DNA of 15,919 nt from Planctomycetota bacterium (GCA_045863855.1 BTVV01000136.1:1-15919); one strand, 5' to 3'. Shown: positions 2,237 to 11,971, counted from the first letter of the stretch. Numbers and translations: made by a program. The notes: generated by a model from the letters alone, not told the origin.

Positions 2237-3274
2237 TTACGCGTCCACGTCCAGCACGATCTTCCCGAACTGCGCGCCGGCTTCCATGCGCTGCACGGCC
2301 TCGGCGTACTGTTCCAACTTGTACACGCGGTCCACGACCGGACGCAGGTGCGCCATGCCGACAGCCGAGAGCAGACACTGGAAATCTTCCAGGCTGCCCA
2401 TCGTCGAACCGATCAGGCTGATGTGATTCCAATACAAGAGCTGCAGGTTGACGGTGGCCTCGCGGCCGCCGGTGACGCCGCAGGTGACGATGCGCCCGCC
2501 TCGGCGGACGGCTTCGAAGCTGATCGGAAACGTCGGTGCGCCGACGGTATCGAACGCGATATCCGCGCCGCGCCCGCCGGTCAGTTCGCGAACCTTCTCG
2601 GCCACCTTCGCCTCGGTCTTGTAGTTGATCCCGTGAGCCGCGCCGAGTCCCTTCGCGCGCGCGAGCTTCTCGTCGCTCCCACTGGTGACGATCGCCTTCC
2701 CGCCGGTCATCTTGACGATCTGGAGCGCCGCGAGCGCCACGCCGCCGCCGATGCCGTGAATCAGCACCGTTTCTCCGACGCGGAAGCGCGCACGCGGAAA
2801 CAGCATGTGCCACGCCGTCAGGTGCGCCAACGGCAAGGCCGCGGCTTCGGGCCAGCTTAGATGCAGGGGTTTGTGCGCCACGTTTACGGCGGGCACGACG
2901 ATGTATTCCGCATGCGTACCGGGAAGCTGGAAGCCCAGCAGCCTGAACTTCGGGCACTCGCTGTGATCGCCGCGCTTGCACCAGCCGCATTGCATGCAGC
3001 TCACGCCGGCGTTGATCACGACCTCGTCGCCCGGCGCCAGGCCTTCCACGCCTTCGCCCAACTGCTCCACGAGGCCCGCGGCATCGCTGCCCAGCACATG
3101 CGCCTGCTTGATTTCCGCTCCGGGGCGGCCTTTGCGCACCCAGACGTCGAGGTGATTCAGCGCCGAAGCCTTGATTCGCACCAGCACTTCGCCGTGCTTG
3201 GGCACGGGCTTGTCGATTTGGCCGATCTGGACCGCTTCCGGTCCCCCGAAATTCCGGATAAAGGCGGCGCGCAT
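2237..3274 (-). CDS. Zinc-binding MDR-family alcohol dehydrogenase/quinone oxidoreductase-like protein
   Basis: ALNHLD and GSDAAG replace the catalytic-Zn Cys and GHE motifs. The structural-Zn lobe CMQCGWC...C is retained. Also HGIGGGVA and C-terminal FGKIVL. GGGGGA upstream. Confidence 0.9.
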   Translation of the reverse strand: MRAAFIRNFGGPEAVQIGQIDKPVPKHGEVLVRIKASALNHLDVWVRKGRPGAEIKQAHVLGSDAAGLVEQLGEGVEGLAPGDEVVINAGVSCMQCGWCKRGDHSECPKFRLLGFQLPGTHAEYIVVPAVNVAHKPLHLSWPEAAALPLAHLTAWHMLFPRARFRVGETVLIHGIGGGVALAALQIVKMTGGKAIVTSGSDEKLARAKGLGAAHGINYKTEAKVAEKVRELTGGRGADIAFDTVGAPTFPISFEAVRRGGRIVTCGVTGGREATVNLQLLYWNHISLIGSTMGSLEDFQCLLSAVGMAHLRPVVDRVYKLEQYAEAVQRMEAGAQFGKIVLDVDA

Positions 3275-3357: not shown

Positions 3358-3720
3358 TCAGGTCTTCGACCAAAGCCCCAGACGGTTGCCGTTGGGATCC
3401 TTGAAGAGCGCGTAGAATCCGTAGCCGCCGCCGATCTCGGTTTTTCCTTTCACGACGGCGCCGCCGGCCTTGGCGATCTCTTCGAGCTTGGCGGGGATGT
3501 CCTCCACACCCAGCACGACGTTCATGCCGTCGTCGCGCGGAGCCATATCGGCGGAGAATCCGCCGCCGAGGTCGCCGGCGTGCCAGATGCAATAGTTCGG
3601 CCCAAGCTGCTCGCCGATCTCCCAACCGAAGACCTCCCCGTAAAAGCGCATGGCCTTGGCCAGATCGGGCGCGGGTACTTCGATGTGACAAACTGCACAG
3701 ACCGGCTTCGAAGCAGACAT
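3358..3720 (-). CDS. VOC/glyoxalase/bleomycin-resistance family protein
   Basis: HIEVPAPDLAKAMRFYGEVFGW, VEDI...GGAV and ALFKDPNGNRLGLW. AAGGAG lies 8 nt before the ATG. Confidence 0.92.
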   Translation of the reverse strand: MSASKPVCAVCHIEVPAPDLAKAMRFYGEVFGWEIGEQLGPNYCIWHAGDLGGGFSADMAPRDDGMNVVLGVEDIPAKLEEIAKAGGAVVKGKTEIGGGYGFYALFKDPNGNRLGLWSKT

Positions 3721-3767: not shown

Positions 3768-4886
3768 TCAGGCTTCCAGACTCGCAACCGAGCCGCCCCA
3801 TTCCGAGGCGAGCGCCTCCGCTTCACCGCGCTCTGGCGTCAGCGCAAACCAGTCCGCGGCGCGCAACGCCGAAAGGTCCAGGTCGCCCGGCAGGCGCCAT
3901 TCGGCCTCGACGGACCAGTCCGCGTCGAGTGGCGCGCAGAGCTGCGCGAAACGGCGCTCCGCGTCGGGCAATTCGGTCAGTGCTTCGTGCGGCAGATACC
4001 GAACGGGCCTGGCGCCCAGCTCCTCTAGTGCCGCTTTGCGTATCGCCACGCCGTAGGGCCGGAAGGTCCAGCGCCGCAAACCCTTGCGCCAGCGGATCAG
4101 CTCGGGGAGTTCCTGCGGCGGGCGGGCGGTAAAGCTGACCATCGCTTCACGTGCGGGCATCAGGCGTCCGGAGCCCATAATGCGCTGCTGCGCCAGGATG
4201 CGGCGCAGCGCCGCCGCCGCGTCGCGCGAACGGCCGGGTGTGCCGTGCAGCAACCATCTCAAGTACTCGGCGTAGGTCTCGCCCGGCCATACGCCATCGG
4301 GCTCGCGCGTATAGTGAGTCAGGCAATCCCACGCTTCGAAAGTCCGCAAGTTCGAAGGGGACCAAAGCGCCGGCTTGGGGGCGCCGCGCGCTTCGGCCTC
4401 TCCGACCTCAAAACTTCGATCCAGCGCCACGCCCCGAGTCCCAAGTTCGGCCTCCACCGCCGCCATATTCCCGCCCTTGCGCACCGCGAGGACAGACGCG
4501 CGATCGGCCAAATCGGCGATGCGGCGGTCGCGCAACGCTCGCGCTTCACGTTTGGGCGATGCGCCAAGCGGCGCCACGATCAAGCGGCGCGCGGGCAGCC
4601 AAGCCTCCGCATCCTTTAAGTGTTTGTCTGCGCCGAGCGGCGCTTCGAGCACCACGATCGCCGCGCCGCCGGCTTCACGGCAAGCCTCAAGCGCCAAGTC
4701 GTACGGCTCGCGGCCCAGCCCCGTAACAAGCGCTTCCCCTGCGGCGGCGCTGGCGCGCACGCATTCCGCCACCGCGCGCACCCACGGCGTGCCGGGTTCG
4801 GCCCCGCGCGGCGTGCGGCTGATAAGCAGCATCCGCCGCGGGGCGTCGAGCAGCGCGAGGTCGCCGGATGGCTGGACCTGATCCAT
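3768..4886 (-). CDS. Hypothetical two-domain protein: DprA/SLOG-like N-terminus plus AbiGi/DarT-like ADP-ribosyltransferase-fold C-terminus
   Basis: 372 aa from ATG 4886 (the track's 4982 start runs through the pyrF promoter region). N-terminus: GDLALL..MLLISR..LVTGLG..AIVVL..RDRRIADLA..VLAVRKGG. C-terminus: LTHYT..LRRIL..VSFT..YGVAI..PVRY..EAEWR. Confidence 0.65.
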   Translation of the reverse strand: MDQVQPSGDLALLDAPRRMLLISRTPRGAEPGTPWVRAVAECVRASAAAGEALVTGLGREPYDLALEACREAGGAAIVVLEAPLGADKHLKDAEAWLPARRLIVAPLGASPKREARALRDRRIADLADRASVLAVRKGGNMAAVEAELGTRGVALDRSFEVGEAEARGAPKPALWSPSNLRTFEAWDCLTHYTREPDGVWPGETYAEYLRWLLHGTPGRSRDAAAALRRILAQQRIMGSGRLMPAREAMVSFTARPPQELPELIRWRKGLRRWTFRPYGVAIRKAALEELGARPVRYLPHEALTELPDAERRFAQLCAPLDADWSVEAEWRLPGDLDLSALRAADWFALTPERGEAEALASEWGGSVASLEA

Positions 4887-4938: not shown

Positions 4939-4973
4939 CTACCGTTTACCGTTCGCCGCTCACCGTTTACCAT
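4939..4973 (+). repeat. Imperfect 7-bp tandem repeat, 5 copies
   Basis: ctaccgt ttaccgt tcgccgc tcaccgt ttaccat. Confidence 0.8.
4945..4973 (+). promoter_or_regulatory. Putative sigma70-type promoter for a leaderless pyrF mRNA
   Basis: TTTACC (4945-4950)-17 nt-TACCAT (4968-4973), 7 nt before ATG 4981. No Shine-Dalgarno sequence. Confidence 0.5.
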
Positions 4974-4980
4974 ACCGCGC

Positions 4981-5928
4981 ATGAATCACTTCGCCGACCG
5001 ACTCATTGCCGCCGTCCGAGCCAAGGGCAATCCCGTCTGCGCGGGCCTCGATCCGCGCTTCGACCAATTGCCGGCCGCCATTCGCGATTCCGCCATTCGC
5101 ACGCACGGCAAGACGGCCAAAGCCGTCGCCGAGGCGTTCATCGAATTCAACCGCGAACTCCTCGACGCGCTGGCCGATCTCGTCCCCGTCTGCAAGCCGC
5201 AGGTGGCGTTTTACGAAGAGTTCGGCCACGAAGGGATGCGCGCGTACGCCGAGACGATGCGGCACGCCAAAGCCCGCGGTTTCGTCACGATCGGGGACGC
5301 CAAGCGCGGCGATATCGGAAGCACCGCGGTGGCGTATGCGCGCGCGCACTTGGGCGGGATGAGCATTACCGGCGGAGAAAGCGTGGGGTTCGAATCGGAC
5401 GCGCTGACCGTGAACCCGTATCTCGGCCACGATACGCTGATGCCATACCTCGAGATCGGCGCGCAGAATGGCAACGGACTCTTCGTGCTGGTCAAGACCA
5501 GCAACCCCGGCAGCGGGGATTTGCAAGACCTCAAGGCCGAAGGCAAGCCCGTCTACGAACACGTGGCCGAGATGGTCAACAAGCTGGGCGAGAAGCATCG
5601 CGGCGCGAGCGGCTTCCACATCGTTGGAGCGGTGGTCGGCGCGACGTACCCGCAGCAACTCACCGAACTGCGCGAGAAAATGCCGGAAGCGCTGCTTTTG
5701 ATCCCCGGTTACGGCGCGCAAGGCGGCACCGCGGAGGATGCGGCGCGCGGGTTTCACCGGGACGGGCTGGGCGCGGTGGTAAATAACTCGCGCGCGCTGA
5801 TCTTCGCCTACAAGGAAAGTGCGTACGCCAAGGAGTTCGGGGAAACGCGCTTCGCGGATGCCGCGCGCGCCGCGGCCCAACGCATGGCCGAAGAACTCAA
5901 CGCCGCGCTCGCGAAGTGCCGCGCCTGA
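4981..5928 (+). CDS. pyrF: Orotidine-5'-phosphate decarboxylase (type 2 subfamily)
   Basis: CAGLDP, KPQVAFY, catalytic DAKRGDIGST, TVNPYLG, VKTSN, GAVVGAT, PGYGAQGG and NNSR. Confidence 0.96.
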   Translation: MNHFADRLIAAVRAKGNPVCAGLDPRFDQLPAAIRDSAIRTHGKTAKAVAEAFIEFNRELLDALADLVPVCKPQVAFYEEFGHEGMRAYAETMRHAKARGFVTIGDAKRGDIGSTAVAYARAHLGGMSITGGESVGFESDALTVNPYLGHDTLMPYLEIGAQNGNGLFVLVKTSNPGSGDLQDLKAEGKPVYEHVAEMVNKLGEKHRGASGFHIVGAVVGATYPQQLTELREKMPEALLLIPGYGAQGGTAEDAARGFHRDGLGAVVNNSRALIFAYKESAYAKEFGETRFADAARAAAQRMAEELNAALAKCRA

Positions 5929-8599: not shown

Positions 8600-9036
8600 G
8601 CGGGCAGCCGGCGCTGGTGCTGATTCCGCTGGGCTTGTGGATCGCGGCGGTAATCATGCGCTTCAGCGGGCAATTCAATCTTTTCAAACGCAGCGGCTGG
8701 CCGCGCGAACGGATCGAAGCTCACGACGCCGACTGCCGCGCGCGCACGCGCGGCGCCACCTGGGCGGCGACAGTCTGCCTGGCCGCCGCCGCGGCATTGG
8801 GCGGAATCGTACTGCTGGATCCTTCGCTTCCGGCCGGCCAGCGCGACGATACCGCGCTGGCGGCCTTCGTCGCCGCGCTGCTCGCCGCGGCTGCCGGGTC
8901 GCTGGCTTGCCTCGACCAGTTCCGCCTCGGCGTGGCCGCCTATCCGGCCGATTGCCGCCCCCTGCTCCGGCGGATTCTGTGGGGTGAACTCTGTTTTTAC
9001 GCGCTTTTCCCGGCGGCGGCGGGGGTGATGTTGTAA
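8596..9036 (+). CDS. Hypothetical membrane protein (about 4 hydrophobic segments)
   Basis: ATGA overlap with the truD stop codon, hydrophobic stretches, and host-like GC-rich codons. Confidence 0.65.
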   Translation: MSGQPALVLIPLGLWIAAVIMRFSGQFNLFKRSGWPRERIEAHDADCRARTRGATWAATVCLAAAAALGGIVLLDPSLPAGQRDDTALAAFVAALLAAAAGSLACLDQFRLGVAAYPADCRPLLRRILWGELCFYALFPAAAGVML

Positions 9037-9105
9037 GCGCTACGGAGGCAGGGGCTACCCATGGACCCCTGAAAGCGGTAGAATGCCTCGGAAGAGGATC
9101 GGGCG

Positions 9106-9411
9106 ATGAGTATCCGCGAACTGCTGCATTCGAAGCGCGAGGCCATCCTTGCGCTGGCTGCCAAGCACGGCGCCCGCAACGTCCGCGTTTTTGGCTCCGC
9201 CGTTCGAGGCGAAGAGCGCGAGGACAGCGATATCGATTTCCTGGTCGCTTTCGAGCCCACGGCCAGCTTGATGGATCATGCCGCGCTGCTTGCGGACTTG
9301 GAAACCCTCTTGGGACGCAAGGTGGATGTCGCTCCCGACGACCGATTGCGTCCACGCATCAAGGATCGAGTCCTGCGGGAAGCCGTACTTGTAGAATTGT
9401 TCACCTGTTAA
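9106..9411 (+). CDS. Minimal nucleotidyltransferase (MNT/MntA-type antitoxin family)
   Basis: Exact GSX10DXD motif (GSAVRGEEREDSDID), LETLLGRKVDV and VLREAV. GAGGA upstream. Confidence 0.92.
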   Translation: MSIRELLHSKREAILALAAKHGARNVRVFGSAVRGEEREDSDIDFLVAFEPTASLMDHAALLADLETLLGRKVDVAPDDRLRPRIKDRVLREAVLVELFTC

Positions 9412-9479
9412 CTTGGTGGCACGATTAGCAGTAGACAAATGCCGCCTAAAGTCATGAATAGGTCTTGGGTAGCTTACGC

Positions 9480-9977
9480 GTGACTGATCAACCACTAGCC
9501 TCCTACGACGAAATTAGGTTTGATGGGAAGCGTACCTTTACGCTTTACGCGGACTCGATCCTAATTAAAGGCGTTCACTCGCTCCAGTCCGAGTTCGAAA
9601 CTCGGATTATTCTTGATACCATCGATCCCAATCTTGAAATTCTGCGAATCCGGAACCCAAACTTTATCGCAGGTATCCGACTTTTTTTGGCTGCGGGAGC
9701 CATTTGGGCTGTACTGGTTTTTGGATTTAGATTTTCAGGGTATTCATTTCTTCCTGGATTGGCGGGAATGATTACCCTTGTTGGTTTTTTGCTGTCATTT
9801 TATACAAGAAAAAAAGTTGAATACGCCCGCTTTAAGAACCGCTCGGGAATGATTGTTTTGGATATCGCAAAGGCTGGGCGTGAAGTCCACAACTTTGAAG
9901 GCTTTGTCCAACAACTCACCCAACAAATTAAATCAGCTCGGGCGCACGCTAGCCCTAACCCCATTGGAACAAATTGA
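9480..9977 (+). CDS. Low-GC hypothetical membrane protein (2 central TM helices)
   Basis: Frame open from 9465; GTG 9480 chosen as start (uncertain). TM-like LFLAAGAIWAVLVFGF and LPGLAGMITLVGFLLSF. Hand-counted GC is 26/60 at 9601-9660 and 24/60 at 9721-9780. Confidence 0.7.
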   Translation: MTDQPLASYDEIRFDGKRTFTLYADSILIKGVHSLQSEFETRIILDTIDPNLEILRIRNPNFIAGIRLFLAAGAIWAVLVFGFRFSGYSFLPGLAGMITLVGFLLSFYTRKKVEYARFKNRSGMIVLDIAKAGREVHNFEGFVQQLTQQIKSARAHASPNPIGTN

Positions 9978-11117
9978 AGCATCGAAACCTTCGCTGCTTC
10001 CAGGATGCACAACCGCCCGCTCGATCCATCCGCCGCCCAGCACTTCCTCGCCCGAGTACAGCACCACCGCCTGACCCGGCGATACCGCGCGCAGCGGTTC
10101 ATCGAAGTGCACGCGAATCCCCTCGGCGCCTTGGGGCTCCACGCGGCAGCCGTGCGTGCGCGGCGAGTGCCGGATCTTCGCTTCGGCGCGGATCGCCTCC
10201 GCCGGCGGAGCGCCGGCGATCCAGTGCATCGCGCGCGCCTCCAGTCCGGGACTCCACAGCGCCTCGTCGGGCCCCAGGACCACGGCGTTGCGTTCGAGAT
10301 CCAGCTTCACCACGTACAACGGTTCGGTCCAGGCCACGCCCAAGCCCCGGCGCTGCCCGATCGTGTACCCGATCAGCCCGTCGTGCTTCCCGATCTCGCG
10401 CCCGTCGGCATGCAGGATCGGGCCGGGCGTGAATTGAGCGGGCGCTTTTTCGCGCAAAAAGCGGCGGTGATCCTTGTCTTTGACGAAGCAGATCTCCTGG
10501 CTGTCGGGCTTCTCGGCGACACGCAGGCCCAGTTCGCTCGCGATGCGCCGCACCTCCGGTTTCGGCAGATCGCCCACCGGGAAGTGCAGGTAGGCCAGTT
10601 CGCTTTGCGTCAGCGGAAAGAGGAAGTAGCTCTGATCGCGCGCCGGATCGACGCCGCGCAGCAGTTTATACGAACCGTCCGTGCCGCGGGCGATGCGCGC
10701 GTAATGGCCCGTGGCCAGCCGCTCGCAGCCCAGTTCGCGCGCCTTCAGCACCAAGCCCTTCGACTTGACGCGCTCGTTGCAGCGCACGCACGGGCTGGGC
10801 GTGCGCCCTTGCACGTAATCGTCTACGAACGAATCGATCACCAAGCGCGAGAAATCTTCGGCCATTTCGAGCGTGTAATGCGGGATGCCGAGGATCGCGC
10901 AGACGTCCTTCGCGTCGAGCACATCCTGCGGGCTGCAGCAAACGTCGCCGCGCGTCTTCTGCGCCAGCGCCGCTTCGTACGCCGCGCGTTCGGGGTTGGC
11001 CTGGCTGCAGACCCAAAGCTTCATCGTCAAACCGACGACGTCGTGCCCCTGAGCCTTGAGCACCGCCGCCGCGACGGACGAATCGACCCCTCCGGACATG
11101 GCTACGGCAACGCGCAT
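9933..11117 (-). CDS. mnmA: tRNA-specific 2-thiouridylase
   Basis: PP-loop SGGVDS, TPSPCVRCN, ATGHYA, DQSYFL, KPDSQEICF, YTIGQRRGLG and PGQAVVLY..LGGGWI. ATG 11117 follows GGGGAG. Confidence 0.97.
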   Translation of the reverse strand: MRVAVAMSGGVDSSVAAAVLKAQGHDVVGLTMKLWVCSQANPERAAYEAALAQKTRGDVCCSPQDVLDAKDVCAILGIPHYTLEMAEDFSRLVIDSFVDDYVQGRTPSPCVRCNERVKSKGLVLKARELGCERLATGHYARIARGTDGSYKLLRGVDPARDQSYFLFPLTQSELAYLHFPVGDLPKPEVRRIASELGLRVAEKPDSQEICFVKDKDHRRFLREKAPAQFTPGPILHADGREIGKHDGLIGYTIGQRRGLGVAWTEPLYVVKLDLERNAVVLGPDEALWSPGLEARAMHWIAGAPPAEAIRAEAKIRHSPRTHGCRVEPQGAEGIRVHFDEPLRAVSPGQAVVLYSGEEVLGGGWIERAVVHPGSSEGFDASICSNGVRASVRPS

Positions 11118-11209: not shown

Positions 11210-11971
11210 TTAATCGCATCGATTGCCAGCATGAATACAATAGCAGCTCGGGCAAATGTGGAATACGACTTGTACAAATGGGTTGTTCTTCTCGGGATGC
11301 TCCCGTGGCGCTAACATCGGCAGTCCATTCTTGGGGTTGCTGTAAACCGTGGCCAAAACTCGCATTCTTGGAGCACAAGCATTAGGACAGACAATGGTCT
11401 CAGCGCCTTGAATCAAATAGGGTAATCCGCCTAGTTGGTCACTTCGCATATCCAATGGGCTTTCTACTTCTCTCCCATAGTACGCCGAAAGCTCGCGCCG
11501 ATCGGAAGCAGTCATCCACGGCTTAATCATGCCCAAGGAGTCCTCAAATCCCTCCCCCATTACACCAAGCACGAGCAGCGCGCATTTTTCAACTTCATAG
11601 GGTATCCGTTGGATGCCTATGGGAATTCTATCAAAGACTTTGGGATAATTGGTATACGGAAAGTCATTGCTCGGCGCTCGCTTACTCGCATAGCCTTTAA
11701 ACTTAAAACCCTTTCGATCACCGATCTCGTAATAGAAATCGTTCCCGCAAGTCCAGCAAAAGTATAAAGATAGACGGGAAAAATCGGGCTGATGTAGCGC
11801 GGGGATCTTGGGATCACAGCAGTCGATACACCATAGCTGACCATACGGACGCTTGCAGACATCGCACTTCGCGTTGGCGTGGAAAGGCTCGCCGCCCATC
11901 CAATGTGTGGATTTCAAGGACTTGGATGGAGTCACCCGAAAGCCAGGCAACATAAAATAATAAGGTTCCAT
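11210..11971 (-). CDS. Low-GC Cys-rich protein, YwqG/DUF1963/PDCD2 (TYPP)-like duplicated domain
   Basis: Two repeats of GGxP..C-x2/3-C..hydrophobic strands..CxxC: MGGEP/CDVC/CWTC and LGGLP/CPNAC/CPSC. Starts 3 nt after the HAD stop codon. Confidence 0.6.
   Translation of the reverse strand: MEPYYFMLPGFRVTPSKSLKSTHWMGGEPFHANAKCDVCKRPYGQLWCIDCCDPKIPALHQPDFSRLSLYFCWTCGNDFYYEIGDRKGFKFKGYASKRAPSNDFPYTNYPKVFDRIPIGIQRIPYEVEKCALLVLGVMGEGFEDSLGMIKPWMTASDRRELSAYYGREVESPLDMRSDQLGGLPYLIQGAETIVCPNACAPRMRVLATVYSNPKNGLPMLAPREHPEKNNPFVQVVFHICPSCYCIHAGNRCD

Follow-up and report, generated by a model that had tools for sequence, protein, structure and literature searches.

Genes at the locus

The gene described here lies on the minus strand of a 15,919-nucleotide stretch of planctomycete DNA, referred to below as the window. 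It encodes a protein of 372 amino acids in which a DprA-like domain is joined to a predicted ADP-ribosyltransferase (ART) domain. The genes and domains of the locus are:

3768..4886, minus strand: DprA-ART fusion gene (P0001), DprA-like SLOG domain plus ART-fold domain, 372 aa
4419..4886, minus strand: DprA-like Rossmannoid (SLOG) domain, residues ~1-156, from Foldseek, hhalign and Atlas
4332..4418, minus strand: variable linker, residues ~157-185, gappy in alignment A1 and holding the lowest pLDDT blocks (80)
3771..4331, minus strand: predicted ART-fold domain, residues ~186-372, with DarT-like structure and AbiGi/DUF2971/DUF4427-like sequence features
4981..5928, plus strand: pyrF (OMP decarboxylase), divergent neighbour, which stays beside the fusion gene in its own family
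3358..3720, minus strand: glyoxalase/VOC gene, downstream, 47 bp past the fusion stop, not conserved outside the fusion gene's own family
2237-3274: zinc-dependent dehydrogenase, after the glyoxalase/VOC gene and likewise not conserved outside that family

An alternative ATG start at 4982 would lengthen the protein to 404 amino acids, but would overlap the start of pyrF. The open reading frame is a real gene and not a chance one, since the changes relative to a copy in the same genus (L001) are mostly synonymous (59 codons changed synonymously and 26 non-synonymously; third positions account for 61 of the 89 altered bases), phmmer homologues form 1,588 clusters when grouped at 50% identity, 224 of them with E<=1e-30, and the AlphaFold model of the whole protein, made from alignment A2, is confident (pLDDT 95.3, pTM 0.91). 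The high pTM of this model suggests that the two domains are held in a fixed arrangement. The nearest homologue, P0002, is 93% identical and also 372 amino acids long, and the nearest named homologues are Planctomycetota hypothetical proteins. Short fragments of a relative about 94% identical, covering parts of the gene, occur on contigs of four metatranscriptome assemblies, for which an origin in DNA is possible. The 372-residue protein itself has no match in Pfam, PADLOC or NCBIfam, so both domain assignments are drawn from homologues, profiles and structure. No other protein of its genome matches either domain profile.

A large family of fusion proteins

Alignment A2 contains 150 homologues, of which 75 are under 440 amino acids and 75 are longer; the long forms have an N-terminal extension and score on DprA models. 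A motif scan of GTDB yielded an estimated ~520 stretches, and 120 of these were fetched, 80 with flanks. The carriers include Pirellulaceae, Planctomycetaceae, Desulfomonilaceae, Syntrophobacteraceae, Zixiibacteriota and Latescibacterota, among others, and cultured hosts are found in Stieleria, Rubripirellula, Aporhodopirellula and Desulforhabdus. Both domain profiles match one ORF in 72 of the 80 loci. Of the remaining eight loci, two have the gene divided between neighbouring ORFs, one runs off its contig, and five carry a long N-terminal part that the profile does not recognise. The fusion is therefore found in other genomes, as had been expected when it was first noticed, and constitutes a large family, with a DprA-like and a predicted ADP-ribosyltransferase domain, that has no name yet. 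Two-ORF splits appear in a few assemblies (L049:5651-7067, L089:5283-6624, L094:5473-7004) and may reflect either a frameshift error or a real division of the gene.

SLOG domains are described in NAD+/ADP-ribose systems and as fusions to Macro, NADAR and nucleic-acid domains, and the passages on SLOG fusions in these two sources do not list a DprA-ART fusion among them (PMC7824862, PMC9503650). The accessible full-text literature gave no description of a DprA-like/SLOG-ART fusion; a brief prior mention is possible. The SLOG survey of Burroughs (2015) may mention the DprA-ART architecture.

The N-terminal domain resembles DprA

The DprA/SMF motif order that led to the original prediction is present in the translation: GDLALL at residues 8-13, LLISR at 20-24, LVTGLG at 53-58, AIVVL at 76-80 and RDRRIADLA..VLAVRKGG at 119-139. 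Structural comparison bears out the DprA/SLOG assignment. Foldseek ranks 1-10 for this domain are all DprA or ShosA (E 2e-6 to 2e-4, with ShosA at rank 6), followed by Moco carrier proteins, LOG and YpsA, so that the E-values of DprA are roughly a thousandfold better than those of the other SLOG clades. In hhalign the domain aligns with a DprA alignment at 96% (E 1.5e-9). The likeness to DprA/Smf (PF02481, TIGR00732; PDB 3UQZ, 4LJR, 3MAJ) thus extends through the Rossmannoid fold over residues 1-156. Against a viral fold library only single-domain SLOG-like matches were obtained.

The family nevertheless differs from DprA in several respects. Although 27 of 67 homologue rows score on PF02481, only 6 of the 67 exceed its cut-off, and the long homologues reach at most 36.6 bits on TIGR00732, far under the equivalog cut-off of 191. 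The whole-protein profile finds DprA among PDB sequences at E 0.15, and a wide N-domain profile gave chance matches only in the same set. The fusion carries an ART domain where DprA has a winged helix, and it coexists with a canonical dprA. The 372-residue short form has neither a SAM domain nor the DprA C-terminal segment, and the hhalign profile alignment ends at query residue 150, which corresponds to residue 255 of the genome's own DprA. The segment of DprA past the last core strand, absent from the short form, is the part that we take to provide dimer and RecA contacts in S. pneumoniae DprA.

Three features of the domain bear on what it might bind:

4815..4817, minus strand: R24, aligning with ssDNA-binding R52 of H. 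pylori DprA; R in 143/150 (A2) and 55/65 (wider set)
4527..4532, minus strand: R119-D120; R119 aligns with H. pylori DprA R143, and D120 stands where the RNR motif of DprA has Asn
4470..4481, minus strand: family-conserved R136-x-x-G139 loop, replacing the DprA E-A-x-x-x-S-G loop

Residues were mapped from the query to the genome's own DprA and from there to the 4LJR chain, taken to start at residue 5, a numbering that reproduces R52, K137, F140, R143 and R170. In H. pylori DprA, R52, R143 and R170 are described as ssDNA-binding residues common to ShosA (PMC12961424). Two of these three arginines map to conserved arginines in the fusion, which speaks for the predicted role in ssDNA binding. 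Against this, R170 has no counterpart in the fusion N-domain, and R119, kept in 149/150 sequences of A2, is kept in only 38/65 of the wider set. The most invariant residues of the domain are S23, D120 (150/150 and 64/65), R136 (141/150 and 60/65) and G139 (150/150 and 62/65), and these could equally form a small-nucleotide pocket.

Short DprA-like SLOG proteins that stand alone, 160-195 aa long and bearing a GGN loop, were also seen (L009:1486-2070, L010, L011, L025, L026); all come from one family, and two adjoin an IS200-like transposase gene. These proteins outscore canonical DprA on the fusion's N-domain profile and, judged by that score, may be a nearer source of the domain.

The C-terminal domain resembles DarT in fold and AbiGi in sequence

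Two motifs define the putative active site:

4305..4316, minus strand: H191-x-T193-R194 on the first core strand (188-192), a predicted NAD+-binding motif, like DarT H13-x-T15 by motif order
3894..3917, minus strand: W324-x-x-E327-x-E329-W-R331, with E329 as the predicted catalytic glutamate

The other motifs first noticed here are likewise present (LTHYT 189-193, LRRIL 227-231, VSFT 250-253, YGVAIRK 278-284, PVRY 294-297, EAEWR 327-331); the last of them had been called terminal, but 41 residues follow it.

When modelled separately, the C-domain gives a pLDDT of 93.8 and takes the ART fold that had been proposed, closest to DarT1/DarT2 (PF14487; PDB 7OMV, 7OMU, 7YK3, 8BAQ) among solved structures. 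Foldseek ranks 1-7 are DarT or DarTG (E 0.007-0.16, TM 0.39-0.45), none of them at E<=0.001. In a VIA comparison with 48,161 chains the first four ranks are DarTG (Z 7.3), DarT1 (7.2), M. tuberculosis DarT (7.1) and Thermus DarT (7.0), with 131-141 residues aligned at an rmsd of 3.6-4.6. Next come Tpt1 (rank 5, Z 6.5) and then 6b and scabin (Z 5.2 each), and PARPs score Z 2.6-3.4. All of the best 50 VIA rows read as ART-fold proteins from their titles, and most of the top matches act on nucleic acids. A Z below 8 is weak alone, and it is the uniformity of the VIA list that argues for a split beta-sheet ART core in the model.

The likeness to DarT does not extend to sequence. An hhalign comparison of the C-domain with 15 DarT sequences gave a probability of 0.3%, the fusion protein has no PF14487 match, and no DarT match was found in its own genome; the C-domain profile also has no match among PDB sequences. 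Because there is no profile-level similarity to DarT, residue equivalences between the two were inferred from motif order. By sequence features (Atlas 0.95) the C-domain is nearest to the AbiGi, DUF2971 and DUF4427 clusters, and AbiGi is placed among known ART-like families (PMC12522546). The best homologue score on PF10899 (AbiGi) is 21.2 bits, below the cut-off of 22.4, and weak PADLOC matches were obtained to AbiGi in 12/75 and to PDC-S31 in 3/75 C-domains. A PF10899 search of 201 genomes was blank in the controls too and is without evidential value. The fusion family shares with this group (AbiGi/DUF2971/DUF4427/PDC-S31) the series H..., S/C-F, Y-G and ExEWR, as seen in L008, L012 and L028, but has its own H-x-T-R-x3-G-P-W-P insertion after strand 1, and no AbiGii partner was seen beside the fusion gene.

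Conservation was counted in A2. The DNA search pattern had demanded H191, T193, R194, G198, W200 and P201, so their invariance in alignment A3 is circular. In A2, H191 is kept in 150/150, T193 in 147/150 and R194 in 148/150, and in the second motif W324 is kept in 145, E327 in 149, E329 in 150, W330 in 148 and R331 in 150 of the 150. Position 251 is S or C in 145/150 (S 110, C 35), and Y297 and Q315 are kept in 149/150 and 148/150. Those conserved residues that the search pattern did not specify hold up in the genome set as well, where E327 is found in 74/75, E329 in 75/75 and R331 in 75/75. The expectation that H, S and ExE would be conserved is thus correct for H and ExE, which are near-invariant, and needs correction for S, which alternates with C. 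The C-domain is better conserved than the N-domain, with a mean column identity of 41% (A3) against 12% (A4), though part of the former stems from the search pattern.

In DarT, H13 and T15 serve NAD+ binding and Y71, R51 and E160 are further key positions, Y71 being replaced by Ser in DarT1 (PMC9967889, PMC11543638). In our model H191, S/C251 and E329 lie on strands, as do the ART residues H/R on strand 1, S/Y on strand 2 and E on strand 5, and the fusion would share with DarT the H-x-T of strand 1, the Glu of the last core strand and, with DarT1 in particular, a small S/C residue on strand 2. The ARTT motif x-x-aromatic-x-x-E/Q-x-E is matched by residues 322-329. Arginine-modifying ARTs commonly carry E-x-E (PMC8120803); DarT instead has Q/A-A-E. 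Candidates for the essential R51 of DarT are variable: position 241 is R in 99/150 (A2) and 25/75 (genome set), and at position 244, where the query has P, R occurs in 100/150 and 54/75. Set beside the Met (M78) and the base-holding H119/N104 of DarT, Q315 is conserved.

Relatives of the C-domain that stand alone or are fused otherwise, with the same H...ExEWR series, were seen at L008:1417-2046, L012:1321-2196 and L028:748-2238; the last carries DUF4427 and directly follows a GmrSD gene.

Distribution and genomic neighbourhood

Prevalence was estimated with a C-domain profile search, in which many of the genomes were draft or metagenome assemblies. The fusion gene was found in 56/61 genomes from the order of a Desulfomonile genome, in 57/61 from the order of a Desulforhabdus genome, and in 93/121 (91 of them strong matches) from the family of a Pirellulaceae genome. 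It is also present in 7/7 genomes of its own family, and is single-copy in most genomes. DarT, used as a control defence toxin, was found in 16/151 genomes of the phylum (11%), a contrast that is only indicative because the DarT sample is broader than a family or order. A phylum-wide search gave strong matches only in the gene's own family, with 0/9 in the other family of the class, but is no measure of absence because 5 candidates were scored per genome. A C-domain tree made by a quick method from 75 rows groups by host, with 8 label changes where shuffled labels need 19.4 on average; none of 200 shuffles was as low as 8, and 28 unlabelled rows were left out of the count. The clade of the query stands apart from other planctomycetes, which suggests a few old inter-phylum transfers. 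The fusion motif had 0 matches in IMG/VR, and a long homologue found nothing among 50,697 phage records and a single partial C-domain match among 72,556 plasmids; fusion hosts are thinly represented in all three collections.

Neighbouring genes were scanned with Pfam as 150 ORFs, from crude gene calls cut at 330 amino acids, most of them from 184 non-redundant calls. Among them were no macrodomain, NADAR, ADP-ribosylglycohydrolase or AbiGii genes, and no DarG macrodomain or NADAR antitoxin was found in the query window, so the initial observation that such partners are missing nearby holds for the neighbours scanned. The 150 ORFs include two Nudix genes, one canonical dprA, one RadC and a few helicases. 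Neighbours vary by lineage, with pyrF at the query locus, BamA-like genes in some Pirellulaceae and, in the Desulforhabdus order, ychF (12/20) and obgE-rpmA-rplU (6/20), named from their sequences; there is no conserved partner gene across lineages. The fusion gene behaves as a lineage core gene in housekeeping surroundings.

A macrodomain is encoded in 4/5 host genomes checked and a separate canonical dprA in 6/6, but both say little because bacteria often have them; among 14 control genomes, 8 encode a macrodomain and 11 a dprA.

In 20 Desulfomonile-order loci, chosen for long contigs and representing one lineage, the arrangement is fixed: comEC (divergent), a rodZ-like gene, a small ORF and the fusion gene. 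The comEC gene, three genes upstream, and the rodZ-like gene are present in 20/20 and the small ORF in 18/20, and a prepilin peptidase gene is next in 14/20, often abutting. This setting agrees with the suggestion in the original prediction that the protein acts on incoming DNA, but other lineages do not share it. A general link to competence was rejected, as 0/20 Desulforhabdus-order loci and no planctomycete loci have the comEC arrangement. The small ORF just upstream (L170-L189) encodes a protein of 113-120 amino acids with no Pfam or NCBIfam family, which is a candidate partner in the Desulfomonile order only. In the planctomycete loci L068, L080 and L100, nadA (quinolinate synthase, NAD+ synthesis) lies directly 3' of the fusion gene on the same strand, and Nudix genes precede the fusion gene in 2 loci.

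Proposed role of the fusion protein

The explanation that we favour, with a probability of roughly 0.45, is that the fusion protein is a housekeeping, ssDNA-guided ADP-ribosyltransferase. The folds, conservation and distribution are observed, and the activity and ssDNA binding are predicted. In such an enzyme the N-domain would grip ssDNA through a binding patch formed by R24, R119 and R136, and the DarT-like domain would move ADP-ribose from NAD+ onto the ssDNA or onto a protein bound to it. H191 and T193 would hold NAD+, E329 would be catalytic, and W324, E327 and Q315 may select the acceptor. Activity would be low unless ssDNA is bound, and we propose that no antitoxin gene is needed because the enzyme would stay quiet without ssDNA. 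A possible role for the mark could be to control the fate of ssDNA intermediates such as taken-up DNA and recombination or repair gaps, and it would presumably be removed by a macrodomain encoded elsewhere. The acceptor is left between two candidates because the fold suggests nucleic acid and the motif suggests arginine; within this explanation a DNA base, as the DarT-like fold would have it, is slightly favoured over a protein arginine, as the E-x-E would have it.

The best-supported reading of the two domains together is a DprA paralogue with ADP-ribosylation as its output, which is predicted to work like a DarT joined to a DprA while being a member of neither family. It differs from DarT in its fused DprA-like domain, in having no DarG or NADAR neighbour that we could see, and in a core-like instead of a patchy distribution. 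In ShosTA and PsyrTA, too, a DprA-like ssDNA-binding domain is coupled to a toxic enzyme (PMC12961424, PMC11961720), but those systems keep the DprA-like part as an antitoxin protein of its own, and their toxin ShosT is a PRTase, whereas the fusion is one polypeptide with an ART fold, lies outside defence islands and has no separate toxin seen beside it. A PARP of H. aurantiacus is like the proposed mechanism in combining a DNA-binding domain with an ART that needs DNA for activation (PMC8120803). Bacterial PARPs differ in their WGR and regulatory domains and PARP-type fold, and are not homologous to the fusion at the family level.

The bacterial DNA-base ADP-ribosyltransferases described in the papers considered here are toxins, with DarT held by an antitoxin and scabin and pierisin being toxins as well. 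A bolder and more doubtful form of the favoured explanation is that fusion to an ssDNA reader derived from DprA tamed a toxin domain of the DarT type, and that the product is now a core gene in several lineages, a self-gated, antitoxin-free writer of ADP-ribosylation on ssDNA or its coat that would license, delay or reject transforming and recombining DNA. If true, bacteria would have a functional counterpart of DNA-activated PARP signalling, assembled from unrelated components. A DarT-like domain retained by the majority of genomes in entire families and orders, free of an antitoxin and equipped with its own ssDNA-binding module, would suggest that ADP-ribosylation routinely controls how bacteria handle ssDNA. 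The fusion also gives a tractable way into the large and poorly studied AbiGi/DUF2971-like branch of ART folds, and its short 372-residue form offers a confident model, clear residues to mutate and cultured hosts.

Among the other explanations, the one that survives best, though unlikely, is a nucleotide-gated enzyme of ordinary metabolism, in which the ligand of the SLOG domain would be AMP, a derivative of ADP-ribose or the end of a nucleic acid, and the ART domain would work as an NADase, generate a signal or process RNA/DNA ends in the manner of Tpt1. It would account for the invariance of S23, D120, R136 and G139 where the full DprA arginine set is not kept, and is in keeping with SLOG domains acting as nucleotide sensors and enzymes (PMC9503650), with LOG, Moco carrier proteins and YpsA following DprA in the fold search, with Tpt1 scoring within 1 Z unit of DarT, and with the nadA gene that follows the fusion gene in three related loci and the Nudix genes that precede it in two. 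The lead of DprA over other SLOG clades and the N-terminal extension and DprA scores of the long forms speak against it, and E-x-E is not the H-H-h motif of Tpt1 (PMC9967889).

The original prediction was of a single-gene anti-phage sensor-effector, and we now regard a single-gene anti-phage or anti-plasmid system, in which phage ssDNA would bind the DprA-like domain and unleash a DarT-like or NAD+-depleting toxin, as less likely still. Each domain does have relatives in defence: the DprA-like antitoxin ShosA binds ssDNA and RecA (PMC12961424, PMC11961720), PADLOC PsyrA scores on 5/39 members, the AbiGi and PDC-S31 scores among C-domains, all of them weak, point the same way, and the stand-alone C-domain relative L028 adjoins a GmrSD gene. 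A standard anti-phage toxin is nonetheless unlikely because the gene is mostly single-copy, lineage-wide at 77-93% prevalence in three large lineages against 11% for DarT, and set among housekeeping neighbours, with no antitoxin seen. The tree follows the hosts and the spread is not patchy, the Pfam scan gave no defence-island context, and the viral, phage and plasmid collections, thin in fusion hosts as they are, held only the single partial plasmid match.

It is improbable that the fusion is an ssDNA chaperone, a DprA paralogue whose ART domain binds NAD+ or nucleic acid without catalysis. An antitoxin would then be superfluous, and AbiGi, the nearest sequence family, has no demonstrated activity and, according to a 2026 review, no significant PDB match (PMC13064643). 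Against this, no residues of the protein are better kept than H191, E327, E329 and R331, and the C-domain is the more conserved of the two.

Other features of the window

The 94-bp gap between the fusion gene and pyrF holds a 10-base word twice (window 4941-4972). Genome-wide this word has 55 occurrences against ~25 expected, with 6 close pairs, and it is possibly a small dispersed repeat or a divergent-promoter site. A cysteine-rich ORF of 253 amino acids (11210-11971, minus strand) has no Pfam or NCBIfam match and lies in a low-GC stretch (0.48-0.54). A minimal nucleotidyltransferase of the MNT antitoxin type (NTP_transf_2/Polbeta; 9106-9411, plus strand), with no HEPN/DUF86 partner evident adjoining it, borders a stretch of lower GC (0.45-0.59 over 9001-10000).
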